Assembly: GCA_000092065.1 (NCBI GenBank)
Contig: CP000585.1
From: Ostreococcus lucimarinus
Lineage: Eukaryota
Strand: one strand, 5' to 3'
Length of the DNA stretch: 64,000 nucleotides
Shown here: in pieces, positions 26,660 to 58,120 of the stretch
Layout: every line of letters starts with the position of its first letter
Numbering within the stretch: the first letter of the stretch is position 1
Made by a program: the position numbers and the translations under genes
Notes under the pieces: model-generated
The model's input: only the letters and a program-made list of their open reading frames with translations
Databases searched by the model: none
Told to the model about the DNA's origin: nothing

Positions 26660-28384
26660 ATGAATCAACGTTCCTCGCCGGTGCGCGCGACGAACGCGAC
26701 GAACGCGACGCGTCGAGCGATGAATTCGCGCGCAATTAAACGTGTGACGACGACGACTGACGACGACGGAAACGACGCGGAAACGACAGACACGACGCCC
26801 GTGTACGCGACGTTCGCGGAAGACGTGACCGGGTTCTTCGGAAAGTGGAACTTGCAGCCGAACGCGCCGCGGTCGAAACGACTCGGGTCGCCCGCGCGCG
26901 ACGGCGGCCGCGGCGGCTCGGGACGCGCGGTCGGGACGTCTTCGCCGCCGCCGCGCGAACCGAAGTGGACGGACGAAACGGATGAGGACGATGAATATTT
27001 ATTTAGTGATCACGACGCGGTGACGCCGGCGGCGAAACGGCGAGTGGTGTCGTTCGAGAGGGTGAGGAGCGTGCCGGGGGCGCGCGCGGCGCGCGGCGCG
27101 GGGAACGCGGCCAAGTTGGCGGCGAAAAGTTTTAAGCGGTTCACGAGTCGGGCGGCGCGAGGCATGGTCGGGGTTCTGAGCGATCGCTCGAGCGTGTTCG
27201 ACTTTAAGATGTTTAAGCTCTTCACGTTCGTGTTGAACGTGACGCTGAGCACGTTTGAGATCCCAAGGCAGTTGATTTTGATTCCTCTCATCGTGGGCAG
27301 TCGATTGGCAATGGTGCCGGAGTGGCTGCTGAGCGCGTTCGAGTATGATTCGTGGGAGATGCCGAGAGCGAAAAAGAAACGCCCCAAGTTAAGCACCGAT
27401 TTTAAGTTCCCGACGCTTCGTTGGAATGCTTTGAAGACGTGGGAGAACGCGATGCAAGCGGGGAGAGAGAGTTTACGCCGCGTCGAGTCGCAAGTGCGCA
27501 CCGAGCCGGGTGAGACGCCGGAGATGAGAGCGGTGATTGATAAACTTATCGAGGAAGGTTTGGCGTACGACAAGGCGTGCGATAGCCAGAAGTCGCAGGC
27601 TGCGTTTGAGCGCGCGCTCGAGCTAAGACCGAAAGATCCGGTCGTGATGATTTCTTTGAGTAAGGAACTCAGCGACCGCGTCTTTGATCACGAAATTTTC
27701 CACAACAAGCCGCAGGCGAGACAGCTTGCGTCGAGAGCCGCTGATTTAGCATCGGAGGCGATCGAACTCGCACCTGAGAACGCACAGTGCTACATCGCGC
27801 TGGCCGTGGCGAACGCGCGGTTGAGCATGTTCAGCGACGCGCGGCAAAAGGTGGAACTCACGCACTCGATTAAAGGAAATTTAATGAAGGCGTTGGAAAT
27901 CGAGCCCGAGAGCGATTACGCCTATCACGTGCTGGCCAGATTCGAGCACACCATGGCGCACATCGGTGGATTGATGCGGTATTTAATCAAGACAATATAC
28001 GGCGCCATCGAACCGGCGACGATCGAGCGGGCTGAGGAGTACTTCAGGCGAGCGATTGAAATCAATCCAAAGCGCCTGATTCACGGCGTTGAGCTCGCCA
28101 AGCTTCTGTACGAAACGAAGCGATATGACGAGTGCAAAGAATTGTTGGTGCCATCGATCGAGCTAGAAATCGAAGACATCAACAGCGTGCGGACGAAGAA
28201 GGACGGCGAAGCGTTACTTAAGAAGTTGACCAACAAACTCAACAGGACGCCGAGTCGTCTCTCGATGTCTCGCACACCGTCCAAGCATCGTCTTCCGCGT
28301 ACCTCGTCCTCGTCGCACACTCCGATGTCGCCGTTGACACCGATCTCACGCAATAACTCCAAGGGCAGCGGGCTCTTTGATTAG
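26660..28384 (+). CDS. TPR-like repeat protein with an N-terminal hydrophobic anchor (architecture reminiscent of RMDN/FAM82-type proteins)
   Basis: ATG verified. The C-terminal half has TPR-like helical repeats (AAFERALELRPKDP..., AYHVLARFEHTMAHIGGLMRYL..., EEYFRRAIEINPKRL...). A hydrophobic segment LFTFVLNVTLSTFEIPRQLILIPLIVG is present. The family assignment is tentative. Confidence 0.55.
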   Translation: MNQRSSPVRATNATNATRRAMNSRAIKRVTTTTDDDGNDAETTDTTPVYATFAEDVTGFFGKWNLQPNAPRSKRLGSPARDGGRGGSGRAVGTSSPPPREPKWTDETDEDDEYLFSDHDAVTPAAKRRVVSFERVRSVPGARAARGAGNAAKLAAKSFKRFTSRAARGMVGVLSDRSSVFDFKMFKLFTFVLNVTLSTFEIPRQLILIPLIVGSRLAMVPEWLLSAFEYDSWEMPRAKKKRPKLSTDFKFPTLRWNALKTWENAMQAGRESLRRVESQVRTEPGETPEMRAVIDKLIEEGLAYDKACDSQKSQAAFERALELRPKDPVVMISLSKELSDRVFDHEIFHNKPQARQLASRAADLASEAIELAPENAQCYIALAVANARLSMFSDARQKVELTHSIKGNLMKALEIEPESDYAYHVLARFEHTMAHIGGLMRYLIKTIYGAIEPATIERAEEYFRRAIEINPKRLIHGVELAKLLYETKRYDECKELLVPSIELEIEDINSVRTKKDGEALLKKLTNKLNRTPSRLSMSRTPSKHRLPRTSSSSHTPMSPLTPISRNNSKGSGLFD

Positions 28385-31497: not shown

Positions 31498-31589
31498 CGA
31501 GCGCGCGCGCGCGTCTCGGCGCTCGACGGCTCGAGCGAGGCGCGCGGCGCGGTGTGCGGCGCGCGCGAGATCGCGACGCGCGGTGCGTC
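31498..31589. promoter_or_regulatory. 92-bp divergent promoter region between the hypothetical membrane protein gene (-) and DNAJC17 (+)
   Basis: The two verified ATGs are at 31497 (-) and 31590 (+). Confidence 0.4.
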
Positions 31590-31670
31590 ATGGCGGACGT
31601 CGACGAGAACGCGTACGCCGCGCTGGGACTGGCGTTCGAGGACGCGCCGAGCGAGGCGACGATTAAAAAG
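31590..31670 (+). CDS. DNAJC17: DnaJ homolog subfamily C member 17-like (J-domain + RRM protein), exon 1
   Basis: ATG at 31590. It encodes MADVDENAYAALGLAFEDAPSEATIKK, the start of a J domain, and is followed immediately by GTGCGT. Confidence 0.8.
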
Positions 31671-31813
31671 GTGCGTCGAGCGCGCGACGCGCGCGACGCG
31701 CGACGCGCGGGGCGACGCGACGCGCGCGACTCGACGATTTCGCATTCGCATTCGCATTCGAAACGACGACTGACGACGACGACGACGACGACGACGCGCG
31801 CGAAAACTCGCAG
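31671..31813 (+). other. DNAJC17: Spliceosomal intron (143 nt, GT..AG, phase 0) splitting the J domain of DNAJC17
   Basis: Donor is AAG|GTGCGT at 31671. Acceptor is ...aaaactcgCAG| ending at 31813. Splicing joins ...ATIKK to AFRKLALKCHPDK, restoring the invariant HPD motif. The intron contains (CATTCG)3 and (GACGAC)8 tracts. Confidence 0.8.
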
Positions 31814-34777: not shown

Positions 34778-36328
34778 CTATCTTCTATAATCTTTCCACG
34801 ACTCGCGAGCGGTCATCGCGCGCATGAGGCTTAGAAATAAAATACTCAGCACGCTTCCCGTCATAGCGGCCACGTTGAACGTCATCGAAAAGTCTGGCGT
34901 GGGAAGAAGCAGGAGGAGACTGTTCATGTACAGCGTCTCGGGAGCCACTGAGGATGCTCGAAGTTTATCGAGAAACGCGCTCGCCTGCTGCGTACGAGGC
35001 ACACGTGTGTCGGCGTGGATGACACGGAACGCATCGAATCGAGCCGGAGGTAAGTCGAACCCACGGTTCGCGTCCGGAGGAAACTCTTGCGCTCGAAGGA
35101 AACCTTTGTCGAAATCAAGGCGCAAGCGAAGCATCGAGGCGTTCGCTGGAAGCACCATTTGTAACTCAAGCAATGAAGAACGCACGCGATCTTCTGCGGG
35201 CACGAAGTGCATTTCATCCAACACTTCGCGCGACACCGCGACTCCGTCCAGCTCGATAGAAAGCGTGTGCATGTACAGCTTCACGAACCAAGGAAGCGGC
35301 TGGAACAAACGAGCACGTATGGGCGGCGACGAGTTCGCGCTCGATTCCAGCGCCGGCCGCTCGATATCGATCACAATACCACCGAACTCATTCCCAGTGC
35401 CCGTCAAGAACCGTTCGACGTACAGCGTGGGCGTGCGATGGTTGACTCCGAGAGCGTCGGCGTCGAACGCCGCCGACGACGACAAATTGAAAGTCGCGAT
35501 ATCATCTCCATCGCGCGCGTGAACGTACGAGCCATCGGCGGCGACGCAGACGTCACTCGCCACTCGCTGGATCGTTCCGATAATTTCAGCGTACGACTCG
35601 CTAGCATCTGGCAACACCATCATCAAAGTTTGCTCGGATCGCGTGTAACCGTCGCCATCCTTGGACAACCTCACGCCGAACGTCAAATGTCTCGCGCTAA
35701 ACACTTCGTGCGCAGTTTTCAGCGCCTTTGCCAATCCCGCTCTATCGCGACAAGGCAACTGCTTCAACCACGGCGCTAAGTTCTCCACGCACACCGCCTC
35801 TTGCGGTAAACTCGCGTGCTTCACCGTCGCGGCGTCGCTCGCCCGTCGCGCCGACGACGCCTCCCCATCCCAAGCGTTAAATCCCAACACCGGTGACGTC
35901 ACCGCCGTAGACGTCCCCAGCGCGCTCAGAGACGCGCAGAACGTCCCGCCGAGCGCCGTCGTCGCGTCTCGCCACCCTCGCTCGGCGTCCTCGTCCGCGC
36001 GCCACGTCCCGAGCGCCTCCGCGCCGATCGGTTTCGCCACCACCGGCGGCGCCCCCCATCGCCGCGCGTTCCAACGCCCGCGTCCGAACCACAGTTCGAG
36101 CGTTTCTGCGCGTGATTTCGCGAGCACCGCGCGCAGGGGCTTGGCCATGACGGCGGAGTGTCGTTCGAGCTCATGCTCGGTGGTGGTGAAGGTGAACACC
36201 AAGGCGACGGCGTCGTCGCGTAAACGCTCGATGAGGACCTCCTCGACGAAAGATGCGCGCGCCGCGACGATGGGGATCATCGCGGCTAACGCCAGGAAGA
36301 CGGCGCATGGGAACGCGCGCGCGCGCAT
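34778..36328 (-). CDS. PIGT: GPI transamidase component PIG-T (Gpi16)
   Basis: ATG verified (cat at 36326-36328). It has a signal peptide. Several blocks align with human PIG-T: [30 protein letters not shown] against ...[38 protein letters not shown] against [31 protein letters not shown] against PWYLRLYVHTL; and [12 protein letters not shown] against [12 protein letters not shown]. A C-terminal transmembrane helix is present. Confidence 0.9.
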   Translation of the reverse strand: [516 protein letters not shown]

Positions 36329-36369
36329 CGCGTTCTGCGGCGTATAGTGTTTGATGATTCGTCAACTGG

Positions 36370-38291
36370 CTAGAGTGGAAATTCGCGTCGAAGAGCGCCG
36401 ATGTCGTGCTTGTCGACGTGTTCTAAGAGATCTAATCGTCCGGTGCAACCAAGACTGATGCGGACGTAGCCCCAGGTCGGACTTTCGGGGTTGGGATTCA
36501 TCGATAACGCGCGAATGTAATAAGGCATCGACTCGGCGTACCGGCCTTGGTTGGCATAACTGATGCCCATGTTTGACCACGCGCGAACGTAGTTGGGTTT
36601 GATGGTCAGCGCGCGGCGATATGCCCCTACTGCGTCGGCACTCTCGGCGCCGTTCGCCTGCGTGGCGCCGATTTTGTTCCACAATGAATGGTCGTCGGGG
36701 CGCAAATTGGCGGCTCGTTGAAAGGCGTTGACTGCGTCTTCGTAATTCCTCGTCAAATGCGCCATGACACCGAGCACAGTTTGCACGTCAGCGTCGTTCG
36801 GTGCTTGTCGAGCGGCTTCTCTGAACATTGCCATGACGTTTTCGGGCGTGTGTGGCGCTTGTCCGGCGGCGATGTGTTTGAAGCGCTCTTGACTTCCGAG
36901 CCACTCACACGCGTGGCCGAGGGCTTCATCCTGGTCCAGCTCGTTCGCGTGGCTCACAGCGAGGGCGAGTAGAACATTTGGATTTTGCGGGTTCGCCTCG
37001 TACGCTTTTGACATCGCCGCGATGGCTTGCTGGTCATCGTCATTTTCCGCTTGGATGCGTCCCAGATGGTACCACGCTTCGCTGTTGCTCTGATCTTGAC
37101 GCACCCACGCCTCAGCGGCGAGGGCAGCTTCGGCGAGTACGCCCGTCTTTGCCAATTCCATCGTTTTCTCTTGCAAACCACTTTGACCGAGGTATGGGTT
37201 CGGGTCGGTGAATTTGTAGTTGCTCCGTTCTGAAAGCGGATTTTGTTGCATTTCGTCCCAAACGTTTTGCATCCATTCTGGGTTGTTGCGCTGCATATCT
37301 TCAAACTCGCTCGCCCACTCGCGCGGTACGTTCTTGAACTCTTCTGCCCAATCGTCGACGTTTGACTGCCTTTGCGATTCCATCTCGCGCTGCGAGAATT
37401 GCTGCGCCCACGCTTGGCTCGTCGGATTTTGACGCTGCATCTGCGCTGTAAACTGGTCCGCCCATTGAGGTTGCGGTTGCTGTGTTTGCTCGATGAACTC
37501 GGCCGCCCATCGCTCACCTTGGTCCACATGCCGCGCCTGAGGTGCCGCGTTTACCTCCTGCAAACCGTCTTCTCTCACGACGACTTGCCCGCTACCAAGT
37601 TTGGACATGAGTTGCGCGAATTTAGAATTCGCAAACTTTGGATCGGCGTTCAACGTCGCCGCAAGCTCACTACTTTGTTTCGCAGTTTGTGCCGCAACGT
37701 CAGTAAGCGGTGCTTGCACATCACTGGCGTGTTGTTGTGAAAACTCGTCCGCCCATCTGTTTTGCGCCGCGCCAAACTCCTCGCCCCAGCGCGTGCCTTG
37801 ATTTGATCTGTACTCTTGCGCCCACGCATCGGCGCGCGGTGGCGCGTGCATCGTGTGTGGCGGCGGCGGGTGGTTGTGAAACTCGTTTGCCCACTGCGCG
37901 TGCCTTGAAGTCTCAACATTCGCGAATTCTTCCGCCCAGGAACTCGGCGACGCCTGCGCGTGAAGTGGTTGCTGAAATCCGCGCGCCCAGCGGTCGCCGC
38001 GCTGCATCTCGCGAAGCATCGCCGCATTATGCGCCATCTGCGCTCGGGCGCTCATCTCAGCGTCATCCATGCGCATGCGCTCGAAGCCGTCTTCCATCTC
38101 CCCCTGCGACTGCAAATGTCTCGCCATCACAGCGCTCCTATTTCGAGCGAACGACTTCTCCAGCGCCGACGCCCCGCGCGCGTCCAACCTCGCATCCGGC
38201 ACCATCTGCACCGGTGCCGCCGCATATCGACCACTCGCACGCATCGTTCCTTCACGCACGTCTTCCACACCGTCCAACAGCCCCTCTCTCG
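36370..38291 (-). CDS. PEX5: Peroxisomal targeting signal 1 receptor PEX5 (plant-like), exon 2: ten WxxxF/Y motifs plus the C-terminal TPR domain
   Basis: The TPR domain is almost collinear with Arabidopsis PEX5: LGRIQAENDDDQQAIAAMSKAYEANP, HSLWNKIGATQANGAESADAVGAYRRALTIKPNYVRAWSNMGISYANQGRYAESMPYYIRALSMNP...ALRREFPL. The WxxxF/Y motifs are WAEEF, WANEF, WAQEY, WGEEF, WADEF, WAAEF, WADQF, WAQQF, WAEEF and WASEF. NRSAVMARHL matches the plant RSSIMARHF. Confidence 0.85.
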
Positions 38292-38419
38292 CTAAATGTA
38301 ACCCATTCGCCGCGTTCGCCGCGCCTCGCGCGAGTTGGTCTGCGCGCCGAGTCCAACCGTCAGTCACGTCGTCTCGCGCGTCGTCTCGCGCGTCGCGTCG
38401 AGCGTCCGCGCGCACGAAC
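38292..38419 (-). other. PEX5: Proposed spliceosomal intron (128 nt, GT..AG, phase 1) in PEX5 that joins an out-of-frame first exon to the main ORF
   Basis: Minus-strand donor is CGAG|GTTCGT at 38419 and acceptor is TTACATTTAG|CG ending at 38292. The 1+2 phase joins ...QRASER to A-REGLLDGVEDV... in the main frame. That an intron exists is near-certain because of the frame change, but the exact acceptor is a model. Confidence 0.55.
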
Positions 38420-38588
38420 CTCGTTCGCTCGCGCGCTGTATCTGTTGTTCGCGCGCGCGCGTGCCTCGATCGCCGAGTAAGACGTCGGCGACGCGCGCGA
38501 TTGGATTCGCGGCGCTCGACGGACCGGCGCCGTCGCTGGGTTCGCACGACGCGCCGCCGGTCGCGAGATCGCGCATGAACCTCGACAT
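38420..38588 (-). CDS. PEX5: PEX5, exon 1 (MSRFMRDLATGGASCEPSDGAGPSSAANPIARVADVLLGDRGTRAREQQIQRASER)
   Basis: ATG verified (cat at 38586-38588). MRDLATGGASC...NPI matches the conserved PEX5 N-terminus (Arabidopsis MAMRDLVNGGAAC...NPLGAL). It lies in a different frame from the 776-aa track ORF, whose first ~150 Arg-rich residues are therefore not coding. Confidence 0.8.
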
Positions 38589-38704
38589 CGCGCCGCGGGT
38601 TCGAGCGTGCGGTCGGCGCGGTCGCGCGGGTCGAGTTGTAACGTAGGCGTCTGCGTTGGGTTGCGTCACGTCGCGTTTGGTATTGCAATTGACGGCGCAA
38701 GGAA

Positions 38705-40282
38705 TCACGTGAGCACGAGGGCGATCTCGCTAGGTTCTAAATCTTCCAATATCCGCCAGTTGTAGAGGTAATAGTGCAAATTCCCGTCGCCGATGCCGAA
38801 ATTGAGCGCGCTCAGGAAGGATTCGTTTTCCATCAAATCGAGCGCGTTGAAGACGTCGAATGCGTTGTTTCGCGCCAAAATGAGGGCGTCTTCCATGAGC
38901 TTCACGAGCGGCATGGACGTCGCGACGTTGTAATACGAGTACGCCGCCTTCAGAGTTTTGTGCTTGGTTTTGCTGTGAATGATTTGCGACGGTAAGTTGT
39001 AAAAGCTGACGAAGTCGGTGATCTTGTTCGTCTTCTCGTCCTCGACGACGTATGAAAACACGACGTCCTCGCGCGGCAACAACCAGTGCCGAACTTCGGC
39101 CTCATTCATTATGGGCGCCACGGCGAATCTAGTCAAATATTTGCTCAACAACGCCGTCACGCGTGGAACGTCGGCCTCGGTCATGTGACGCAACCCTTCC
39201 GATTTTGGCTTCGCGGCAAGCTTGAACATCTGCACCGCGCGTGACATCGAGGCGTCGCGACCCAGGCGCGTGAATCCGATGTCGACGAGCTTTTTAATAT
39301 CCAAACTCCGATGCCAATAACGCGCTTTCGATATCGGCTTCGGCAACAGCACTCCCGCGGTGTACGTCGCTTGCCACACATCTTTCGCGTTGACCCGTCG
39401 CGTAATCTCCTTGATGAGCGTCGGCGCGATGCGCTTCGAGCGCAACTTTTTATGAATGCACAAGAAATTGATCTCCGCCAAGTCGATTTCTTTCCCCTTC
39501 ACCCTGAGTTTCGCCGGCACGCCCGTGATGAACGCCACGAGCGTCTGCGTCACCTTCAACCGCACTCCAACGTGCCAATCACCGTGATACTCCGGCGGTC
39601 GCAGCGCCCACTTTAAAAACTCTTGCGAGTATTGAAATCGAAACATCGCGTCGTCGTCCTCCACGTAGTTGTTCGTCAACAGCTCGTACACCTCCTCCTG
39701 CGTCCTCGAGTCCGTCATATCGCACGAGCACCACTCGTACCCCGGCGGCAGCGCGCCTCCGCTCTCGCTCGTCTCACTCGCGAGTTTCGGCGGGTCGATC
39801 GGTCCTTCCCGCAGCTCCGCGCCGCGCGACGTGTCCTCGCCGAATTGTCGCACGGGTTGCGTCTCCCAGAATTCGTGCGACGGCATTCGCGACGTCCGCT
39901 TCCCTTCGCGTTCGGCGAGGTGATGCTTCACGAGCGCGTCGACCACGCTCGACACCGTCGGCGCGTCGCCGTCGCGCGCGCGATCGACATCGCCTTCGAC
40001 ATCTCGTCCGCGCACCGCGTCGTTTCGCGCGTCGCGCGCGTCCGACGCGTCGGCGCCGACGACGCGCGCGTTCGCGTCGGCGCTCGCGGCGCGCGGCGCC
40101 GCGTCGGCGTCGGCGTCGGCGCGCATGTCGCGTCCAGCGCGTCGGAGTGCGGGCCGACGCCGTTCATCGGCAGAGCGCGACGCGTCGGCGAGCGCGCGAG
40201 ACACCGAGTCGGCGCGCGAGCGCGCGCGAGCGATCGACGCGTCGACGCTCAGACGCATAGACGCCCGGACGCGTCGAGACAT
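38705..40282 (-). CDS. NMT: Glycylpeptide N-tetradecanoyltransferase (N-myristoyltransferase)
   Basis: ATG verified at 40282. Conserved blocks are FWETQPV, EINFLCIHKKLRSKRIAPTLIKEITRRVN and YYLYNW. The N-terminal ~140 aa are Arg/Ala/Asp-rich, and the true start may be a downstream Met. Confidence 0.85.
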   Translation of the reverse strand: MSRRVRASMRLSVDASIARARSRADSVSRALADASRSADERRRPALRRAGRDMRADADADAAPRAASADANARVVGADASDARDARNDAVRGRDVEGDVDRARDGDAPTVSSVVDALVKHHLAEREGKRTSRMPSHEFWETQPVRQFGEDTSRGAELREGPIDPPKLASETSESGGALPPGYEWCSCDMTDSRTQEEVYELLTNNYVEDDDAMFRFQYSQEFLKWALRPPEYHGDWHVGVRLKVTQTLVAFITGVPAKLRVKGKEIDLAEINFLCIHKKLRSKRIAPTLIKEITRRVNAKDVWQATYTAGVLLPKPISKARYWHRSLDIKKLVDIGFTRLGRDASMSRAVQMFKLAAKPKSEGLRHMTEADVPRVTALLSKYLTRFAVAPIMNEAEVRHWLLPREDVVFSYVVEDEKTNKITDFVSFYNLPSQIIHSKTKHKTLKAAYSYYNVATSMPLVKLMEDALILARNNAFDVFNALDLMENESFLSALNFGIGDGNLHYYLYNWRILEDLEPSEIALVLT

Positions 40283-49002: not shown

Positions 49003-49070
49003 GTGCGTGCGCGCGATCGCGACGCGGCGAAACGCGTCGCGAGAGACTGACGGGCGACGGCCGCGCGCAG
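49003..49070 (+). other. UBE2K: Spliceosomal intron (68 nt, GT..AG, phase 1) in UBE2K
   Basis: Donor is G|GTGCGT at 49003 and acceptor is gcgCAG| ending at 49070. G plus GA reconstitutes a Gly codon, giving ...TIAG-PSETVYEGGTF..., which aligns with human ...EIAGPPDTPYEGGRY.... The length is not a multiple of 3, which explains why the two exons fall in different track ORFs (48885..49157 and 48365..49531). Confidence 0.9.
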
Positions 49071-57650: not shown

Positions 57651-58120
57651 TCGCCCGTTCATCGTGTAACGCACAATCCTTCGCGCGTCGTCCCGCGTCG
57701 GCTCGTCGCCAGCCGCGCCGCGCGCGTCGCCGCACATCGGCGCACTCGATCCGCGCAGACATGGGCGGCCGCCGCGCGCACCACGAAAACGGCGATCACC
57801 CCATGTGTTCGTTCGCGGCGTGCGTGCCGCCCAAGGAGTGGAGCGCCGAGCGCGTGAGGTGCGTCGCGACGCGCGCGATCGTCGCGAGATAACGACCTCG
57901 AGATATCGCTTGAGTTTCGTTCGAAACGCGCTCGCGCGACGCGCGCGCGCGACGCGGGCGGGCGACGAGGGATGCGACCGAAGCGAACGCGCGAACGCGA
58001 CTGACGAACGACGCGCGCGCGACGCACGAACGCAGGACGTGCGTGGATGAGTGCTTTGAAAAATTGCCGAAGACGTACTACAAGGTGGAACGACGCGAGT
58101 GCGGCGGATTGGCGCGGTCG

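Follow-up and report, generated by a model that had tools for sequence, protein, structure and literature searches.

The PEX5 gene of Ostreococcus lucimarinus very probably consists of two exons separated by an 80-nt intron

The locus considered here lies on the minus strand of a 64,000-nt stretch of Ostreococcus lucimarinus DNA (contig CP000585.1, assembly GCA_000092065.1), hereafter called the window, and is with high probability the PEX5 gene of O. lucimarinus CCE9901 (XP_001418009.1 / ABO96302.1 / UniProt A4RXJ8), made up of two exons and an 80-nt intron. Exon 1 (38420..38588) contributes 169 nt of coding sequence, which encode MSRFMRDLATGGASCEPSDGAGPSSAANPIARVADVLLGDRGTRAREQQIQRASER and stop in phase 1, one base into codon 57. 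The intron, a phase-1 intron of the spliceosomal type, occupies 38340..38419, and exon 2 (36370..38339) holds the rest of the coding sequence up to and including the stop codon TAG at 36372..36370. The gene is flanked on the same strand by an N-myristoyltransferase gene (NMT, 38705-40282), which leaves a spacer of 116 nt upstream of the PEX5 start codon, and by a GPI16/PIG-T homologue (34778-36328), which leaves 41 nt downstream of the stop codon. The gene order NMT-PEX5-GPI16 was kept in every relative examined, i.e. in all ten related loci that were fetched.

Joining the two exons without these 80 nt gives a protein of 712 aa, which an exact look-up in a collection of 15 billion protein sequences showed to be letter-for-letter XP_001418009.1 / ABO96302.1 / A4RXJ8, a record deposited as 'peroxisomal targeting signal 1 receptor [Ostreococcus lucimarinus CCE9901]'; all 712 residues are identical, and the two are the same gene. 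In that collection the exact 712-aa sequence also bears a 'MetaClust' source label, which we did not count as transcript evidence. The deposited gene model is itself a prediction, and the exact match is an agreement with the annotators rather than a proof of splicing. GenBank, RefSeq and UniProt already contain the PEX5 gene with its product and exon structure, which are thus already known, and as an annotated housekeeping gene the locus is of small biological weight. A preliminary description made from the letters of the sequence had recognized a plant-type peroxisome import receptor, PEX5, in an alga with a very small genome, and this reading is borne out by the domains and motifs described below as well as by the deposited O. 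lucimarinus protein.

When the sequence is read without splicing, there is an uninterrupted minus-strand ORF of 776 codons (36370..38700), which ends in ...GALRREFPL followed by the stop codon, and for which the 15-billion-sequence collection holds no record. The conserved N-terminus MSRFMRDLATGGASC...NPI is found in a different frame, which begins at the ATG at 38588 and runs up to CGAG/GTTCGTG (the slash marks the exon end), with the GT of the donor at 38419-38418. The preliminary description had accurately placed this ATG, the donor and the sequence TTACATTTAG (38301-38292), and had rightly assigned the true N-terminus to a separate exon in another frame; it was also correct in calling the Arg-rich start of the long ORF an artefact, but the artefact comprises about 120 residues (38700..38340) instead of the 150 given there. 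The artefact arises because the reading of the 776-codon ORF runs, over its first ~120 codons, through the intergenic spacer, then through exon 1 out of frame, and then through the intron.

The splice signals of the intron agree with those published for this genome. Among EST-confirmed O. lucimarinus introns outside chromosome 2, the donor consensus is GTGCGTG, the motif ACTGAC is found in 87% and its extended form GACTGACG in 66.5%, CGCAG is the preferred acceptor, and the branch points lie roughly 20-35 nt upstream of it (PMC2483917). The 5' splice site GTTCGTG (38413..38419) matches this consensus at 6/7 positions and deviates from it at one base (GTT vs GTG); the branch-point motif GACTGACG (38358..38365), with the presumed branch A at 38360, is an exact match to the extended consensus; and the 3' splice site CGCAG (38340..38344) ends 20 nt past the branch A with the first AG to follow it, there being no other AG between 38360 and 38344-38340. 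The spacing of 20 nt falls at the lower end of the peak of 20-35 nt that has been published (PMC2483917). By its donor, branch motif and acceptor, the intron thus fits the non-chromosome-2 U2-type class of Ostreococcus introns (Irimia & Roy 2008, PMC2483917). As a stand-alone signal, GACTGACG occurs 6 times in the window against 4.4 expected, which is not significant; since it is not enriched alone, it was weighed only jointly with the donor, the acceptor and the cross-species conservation.

Comparison with the relatives, ten related loci from eight lineages that all have the order NMT-PEX5-GPI16, shows homologous introns throughout. In all ten, exon 1 ends in phase 1 at G/GT[GAT]CG[TC], the relatives' donors at the same codon phase being GTGCGT, GTGCGC or GTACGT, and an ACTGA[CT] motif (ACTGAY) is followed 16-31 nt after the branch A by an in-frame CAG. 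A simple rule that takes the first AG after the branch motif was rejected, as it fails in some relatives with an AG 3-15 nt after the branch A; the feature that is consistent across the relatives is the first in-frame CAG at least 16 nt downstream of the branch A. The intron lengths are 80, 96, 94, 92, 81, 81, 90, 85, 78 and 92 nt, i.e. they range from 78 to 96 nt and fall into all three classes modulo 3. Close strains differ within the intron by indels that are not multiples of three. The frame offset between exon 1 and exon 2 is not the same in L001 and L002, nor in L009 and L011, although these are close strains and the proteins of the latter two share a 90% cluster, and two O. tauri strains have introns of 94 vs 92 nt with an identical protein. 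Exon 1, on the other hand, is conserved as protein across all eight lineages, with MSRF[AM]RDL kept in four Ostreococcus lineages, and its DNA is about 95% identical without indels between close pairs. Its N-terminal motif aligns with the PEX5 proteins of O. tauri and of land plants and with Bathycoccus-like PEX5, where MSRFMRDLATGGASC corresponds to MAMRDLVTGGAAC of plant PEX5 in an alignment with an invariant Cys column (Cys15, codon 38544..38546); this likeness counts for the present protein only if exon 1 is spliced in.

Conservation was also compared downstream of the acceptor. Eight of the loci have 44 nt, and the other two 41 nt, between the CAG acceptor and the LA[RQH]EGL block; in close pairs this stretch is free of indels, with 86-93% identity, against 78-79% with indels in the intron. 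The preliminary description had proposed an intron of ~128 nt, which places the 48 nt at 38292..38339 in the intron; these 48 nt behave as coding sequence because of their fixed length and their higher conservation relative to the intron, and they are best read as the completion of codon 57 followed by QLARGAANAANGLHLA. Its aligned counterpart in O. tauri is GREVALAREANGVGLA of the model XP_022839017.1, which joins ...REAREHG to GREVALAREANGVGLAQEGLL through the homologous intron and so retains the block that the 128-nt model deletes.

On the basis of the annotation, the comparison and the signal consensus, we therefore place the acceptor with considerable confidence at the CAG at 38342-38340, which gives an intron of 80 nt. 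The mature transcript would then in all likelihood read ...GCGAACGAG/ACCAACTCGCG... across the junction, which can also be written as ...GATACAGCGCGCGAGCGAACGAG/ACCAACTCGCGCGAGGCGCGG... or as GAACGAG/CGAGAGAGG. We stop short of certainty since no transcript junction was found, the deposited model is predicted, and GACTGACG does not occur above chance. Among metagenome contigs there were no exact DNA matches to this junction and none to the junctions of the 128- and 134-nt models, so that this collection yielded no transcript evidence for or against any of them; a protein search for junction-spanning peptides with the N-terminal 169 aa returned two unspliced fragments only.

The alternative put forward in the preliminary description keeps the same exon 1 and donor and ends a 128-nt intron at TTACATTTAG (AG 38293-38292), so that a 696-aa protein without QLARGAANAANGLHLA would be made, with a junction that would read GAACGAG/ACCAACTC, also written as GAACGAG/CGAGAGAGGGGCTGTTGG. 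This AG is in frame, and the short stretch rich in T just before it would speak for such an AG in plants or animals; it had been chosen as the only pyrimidine-rich AG nearby, one that restores the main frame. However, eight AGs between 38386 and 38250 restore that frame, so that frame cannot choose the acceptor, and we dropped frame restoration as a criterion; a pyrimidine tract, moreover, is absent from the EST-derived splice consensus of this genome, GTGCGTG / GACTGACG / CGCAG (PMC2483917). The AG of TTACATTTAG lies 68 nt past the branch A, with two in-frame AGs before it (38341 and 38326), and its ending TTTAG is neither CGCAG nor within 20-35 nt of the branch point (PMC2483917). In most relatives, O. 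tauri included, an in-frame AG is missing at the corresponding position, while the 48 nt that would be removed are conserved in length and align as protein across eight lineages. Finally, the 696-aa product is absent from the 15-billion-sequence collection, in which the 80-nt product is the deposited protein; relative to XP_001418009.1, it has a deletion of 16 residues after residue 56. With the acceptor at 38340, the 128-nt model would delete 16 codons of conserved length and puts the end of the intron 48 bases too far downstream (38292 vs 38340), and we consider it highly improbable.

Use of both acceptors (38340 together with 38292 or 38325) strikes us as no less improbable. These sites are mutually in frame, so that isoforms differing by 5-16 residues in a disordered linker would result, and, as several AGs downstream of 38340 are in frame, a minor use of them is compatible with the data. 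Against this, the downstream AGs are not conserved in the relatives, and a second acceptor sits ill with the strict splice signals published for the intron-poor part of the genome (PMC2483917). Two speculations may be mentioned here as very unlikely: that the AGs at 38326/38325 and 38293/38292 serve as minor acceptors that generate such 5-16-residue linker isoforms, and, separately, that the fixed number of eleven WxxxF/Y motifs across Ostreococcus, which exceeds that of angiosperms by two, reflects an avidity tuned to reduced PEX13/PEX14 docking in a minimal cell. The least probable reading, to which we give next to no credence, is that there is no splicing, that translation of PEX5 begins within the long ORF (at GTG 38367, giving 665 aa, or at a later Met) and that the MSRFMRDL... 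frame is a relic: many metagenomic gene calls do have products of 665, 635 or 607 aa, but these stem from intron-blind, prokaryote-style callers, and exon 1 is conserved as protein in all eight lineages, with 95% DNA identity and no indels in close pairs, and bears the Cys motif common to the PEX5 family from algae to land plants.

The 80-nt intron bears on the annotation of related sequences as well. Intron-blind callers in public and metagenomic catalogues yield PEX5 versions of 758, 665, 635 and 607 aa, the one of 665 aa starting at a GTG within the intron, and where the intron is stop-free and a multiple of three in length (81 nt in L007 and L020, 90 nt in L009), read-through proteins of 730-756 aa appear in the catalogues; in metagenomic catalogues, PEX5 is thus routinely truncated or mis-extended by such gene callers. 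As a lesson of method, the combination of frame restoration with a pyrimidine-rich AG is the wrong acceptor rule in Ostreococcus, and the signals to go by are GTGCGTG, GACTGACG and, about 20 nt further on, the first CGCAG. A long ORF across the splice junction, which we tried as a test on other intron-like candidates, was found to be undiscriminating, as unspliced frames are often open as well in this GC-rich sequence.

PEX5 is known for a disordered N-terminal half that carries several WxxxF/Y motifs (PMC8172628). In the O. lucimarinus protein, the disordered N-terminal region with these motifs extends over 37303..37989, and a strict scan for W-x-x-x-[FY] detected eleven of them, namely WARGF, WAEEF, WANEF, WAQEY, WGEEF, WADEF, WAAEF, WADQF, WAQQF, WAEEF and WASEF, with W codons that start at 37989, 37938, 37893, 37824, 37788, 37755, 37509, 37464, 37410, 37350 and 37317, respectively. 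The ten motifs counted in the preliminary description are thus to be raised by one, WARGF at 37989 being the addition. The number is far above chance (2000 residue shuffles gave 0.92 on average and 5 at most), and the array is real because the shuffles never exceed 5. The positions of the motifs are common to the relatives, and every sampled Ostreococcus lineage has 11, against 9 in Bathycoccus-like sequences, 9 in angiosperms and 7-11 in other chlorophytes; the count, which had been thought unusually high, is therefore not exceptional for the green lineage.

The C-terminal TPR domain, predicted to bind PTS1, comprises residues ~429-712 (36373..37224). Over its last ~300 residues, the protein matches PEX5 TPR domains of known structure from human, Trypanosoma and other organisms (1fch, 3r9a, 2c0m, 3cv0 and 8ggd) with E values of 1e-42 to 1e-47 (6e-44 for 1fch), the matches to PDB chains spanning residues ~400-710, and 8ggd, a full-length PEX5 chain, aligning over residues 292-711; in addition, multiple Pfam TPR families score above their cut-offs. 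The segments QAEN, GATQANG and NMGISYANQG align with the corresponding motifs of human PEX5 (3r9a), such that the Asn motifs of the PTS1 pocket, QAEN, GATxANG and NxGISxxNxG, are identical; residues of these motifs contact PTS1 in the 1FCH structure. Upstream of the TPR domain, residues 267-314 of the 712 aa (37567..37710, ..NADPKFANSKFAQLMSKLGSGQVVV..) form a putative PEX7-binding box region. It gives a weak match to Pfam PF25098 PEX18_PEX21_C (E 5e-4, 20.4 bits, which is below the gathering score of 25), and the box DPKFANSKFAQLMSKLGSGQVVV has a close counterpart in DPKFQNSKFLQFVSKMSRGELII of plant PEX5, the columns DPKFxNSxF...S+..xG being strongly conserved. The database homologues with E below 1e-40 come from green algae and land plants; every one that carries a name is PEX5 or peroxin-5, and the others are unnamed hypothetical proteins. 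The PDB matches, the named homologues, the N-terminal Cys motif, the putative PEX7 box, the EFPL end and the eleven WxxxF/Y motifs against 0.92 together identify the protein as PEX5.

By homology, the 712-aa product would be a plant-type PTS1 receptor, and its mode of action may be pictured after the published import mechanism (PMC9795577 and PMC8172628). In the cytosol, the TPR domain would bind the C-terminal PTS1 signal of folded matrix proteins, and, as in plants and mammals, PEX7 with its PTS2 cargo may be recruited by the box DPKFANSKF...GQVVV. Through its eleven WxxxF/Y motifs, the disordered N-terminal half would bring the complex into the PEX13 YG phase and could bind PEX14 on the lumenal side; after ubiquitination, PEX1-PEX6 would probably extract the receptor. 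PEX5-type receptors have a conserved N-terminal cysteine that is implicated in recycling in other organisms (Jansen et al. 2021, PMC8172628), and by analogy Cys15 in the exon-1 motif may be the residue involved in the return of the receptor to the cytosol.

A close known system is that of O. tauri, which is among the species of a published comparative analysis of PEX proteins (PMC8172628). Its PEX5 (XP_022839017.1 / CEF97993.1, 703 aa) is likewise encoded by two exons, with a phase-1 intron at the homologous codon and an ACTGAC...CAG 3' end, and has the same eleven WxxxF/Y motifs and the same flanking genes. The protein is about 71% identical to that of O. lucimarinus, a figure that belongs to the representative of its 90% cluster. 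The two genes differ in the length of the intron (94 or 92 nt in O. tauri vs 80 nt), in the donor, which is GTGCGC in O. tauri, and in the linker after the junction, GGREVALAREANGVGLA in O. tauri vs DQLARGAANAANGLHLA in O. lucimarinus.

The PEX5 proteins of land plants (e.g. Magnolia sinica and Lactuca sativa, of the Arabidopsis PEX5 type) have in common with the O. lucimarinus protein the N-terminal M..RDLvtGGa.C...NP motif, the putative PEX7-binding box DPKFxNSKF, the WxxxF/Y array, the TPR domain and the terminal EFPL. The angiosperm proteins differ in having a longer linker from the N-terminal motif to the first W motif, and nine W...[FY] motifs vs eleven here. The identity amounts to 43% over 520 aa (Magnolia) and is higher in the last TPRs, so that the TPR domain, which had been described as almost residue-for-residue that of plant PEX5, is less similar than this wording implied, while the terminal EFPL noted at the same time is indeed present. 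With human PEX5, the protein is alignable at this level in the TPR half only. There, the TPR domains of human PEX5 and PEX5L (1fch, 3r9a and 4eqf) belong by sequence to the same fold family (E 1e-44 to 1e-47), human QAEN, GATLANG and NLGISCINLG standing opposite QAEN, GATQANG and NMGISYANQG of O. lucimarinus, and O. lucimarinus has a shorter loop than human between TPR 7 and the C-terminal bundle.

The intron homologous to that of PEX5 in the window is 81 nt long in three of the related loci fetched for comparison (L007, L008 and L020) and 90 nt long in two others (L009 and L010). In both of these related lineages its length is thus divisible by three and it is free of stop codons; therefore, gene callers that are blind to the intron give a continuous 'PEX5' of 730-756 aa, of which 27-30 residues are spurious, and a retained intron would likewise keep the reading frame. 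Within the PEX5 intron of the window, a perfect 12-nt tandem duplication (two copies of ACGCGCGAGACG) occupies 38370-38393 on the minus strand, and it is absent from every related locus whose sequence was displayed in the comparison. The variation in intron length between lineages is probably due in part to this duplication.

The order NMT-PEX5-GPI16 (34778-40282 in the window) is common to all the relatives (L001-L020), and those loci that were retrieved together with broad flanking sequence keep the longer order Solute_trans_a/NMT/PEX5/GPI16/Nuc_sug_transp/UQ_con. The spacers are very short: the PEX5 ATG follows the NMT stop after 116 nt, and only 41 nt separate the stop codon of PEX5 from the ATG of GPI16, so that the PEX5 3' UTR must overlap the GPI16 5' region. 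The GPI16 downstream of PEX5 is annotated in one O. tauri assembly (GCA_000214015.2) as a single 495-aa product, and in the other (GCA_002158475.1) as a 247-aa product plus a 208-aa gene on the opposite strand, which looks like an annotation discrepancy between the two assemblies (loci L001 and L002).

A metagenomic relative of the window's PEX5 protein (P0004, 668 aa, 95% identical) changes past ...FKHIAA to an Arg-rich alternative frame, which is also present in the window as a 106-aa ORF (36362-36682). This switch suggests a frameshift in the TPR domain of that contig, either an assembly error or a real mutation.

The composite signature of the PEX5 intron, GT[GT]CG[TC]... GACTGACG ... followed by CAG 21-41 nt on, was also found on the plus strand at 26681-26789, 31583-31813, 49003-49070 and 57807-58035. 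These four stretches are possibly introns of neighbouring genes; a test for an ORF spanning the splice junction gave no discrimination. If spliced, the candidate at 31583-31813 would lead into AFRKLALKCHPD, which resembles a J-domain motif, and the 49003-49070 candidate has exactly the same 3' end as the PEX5 intron, GCGCGCAG.
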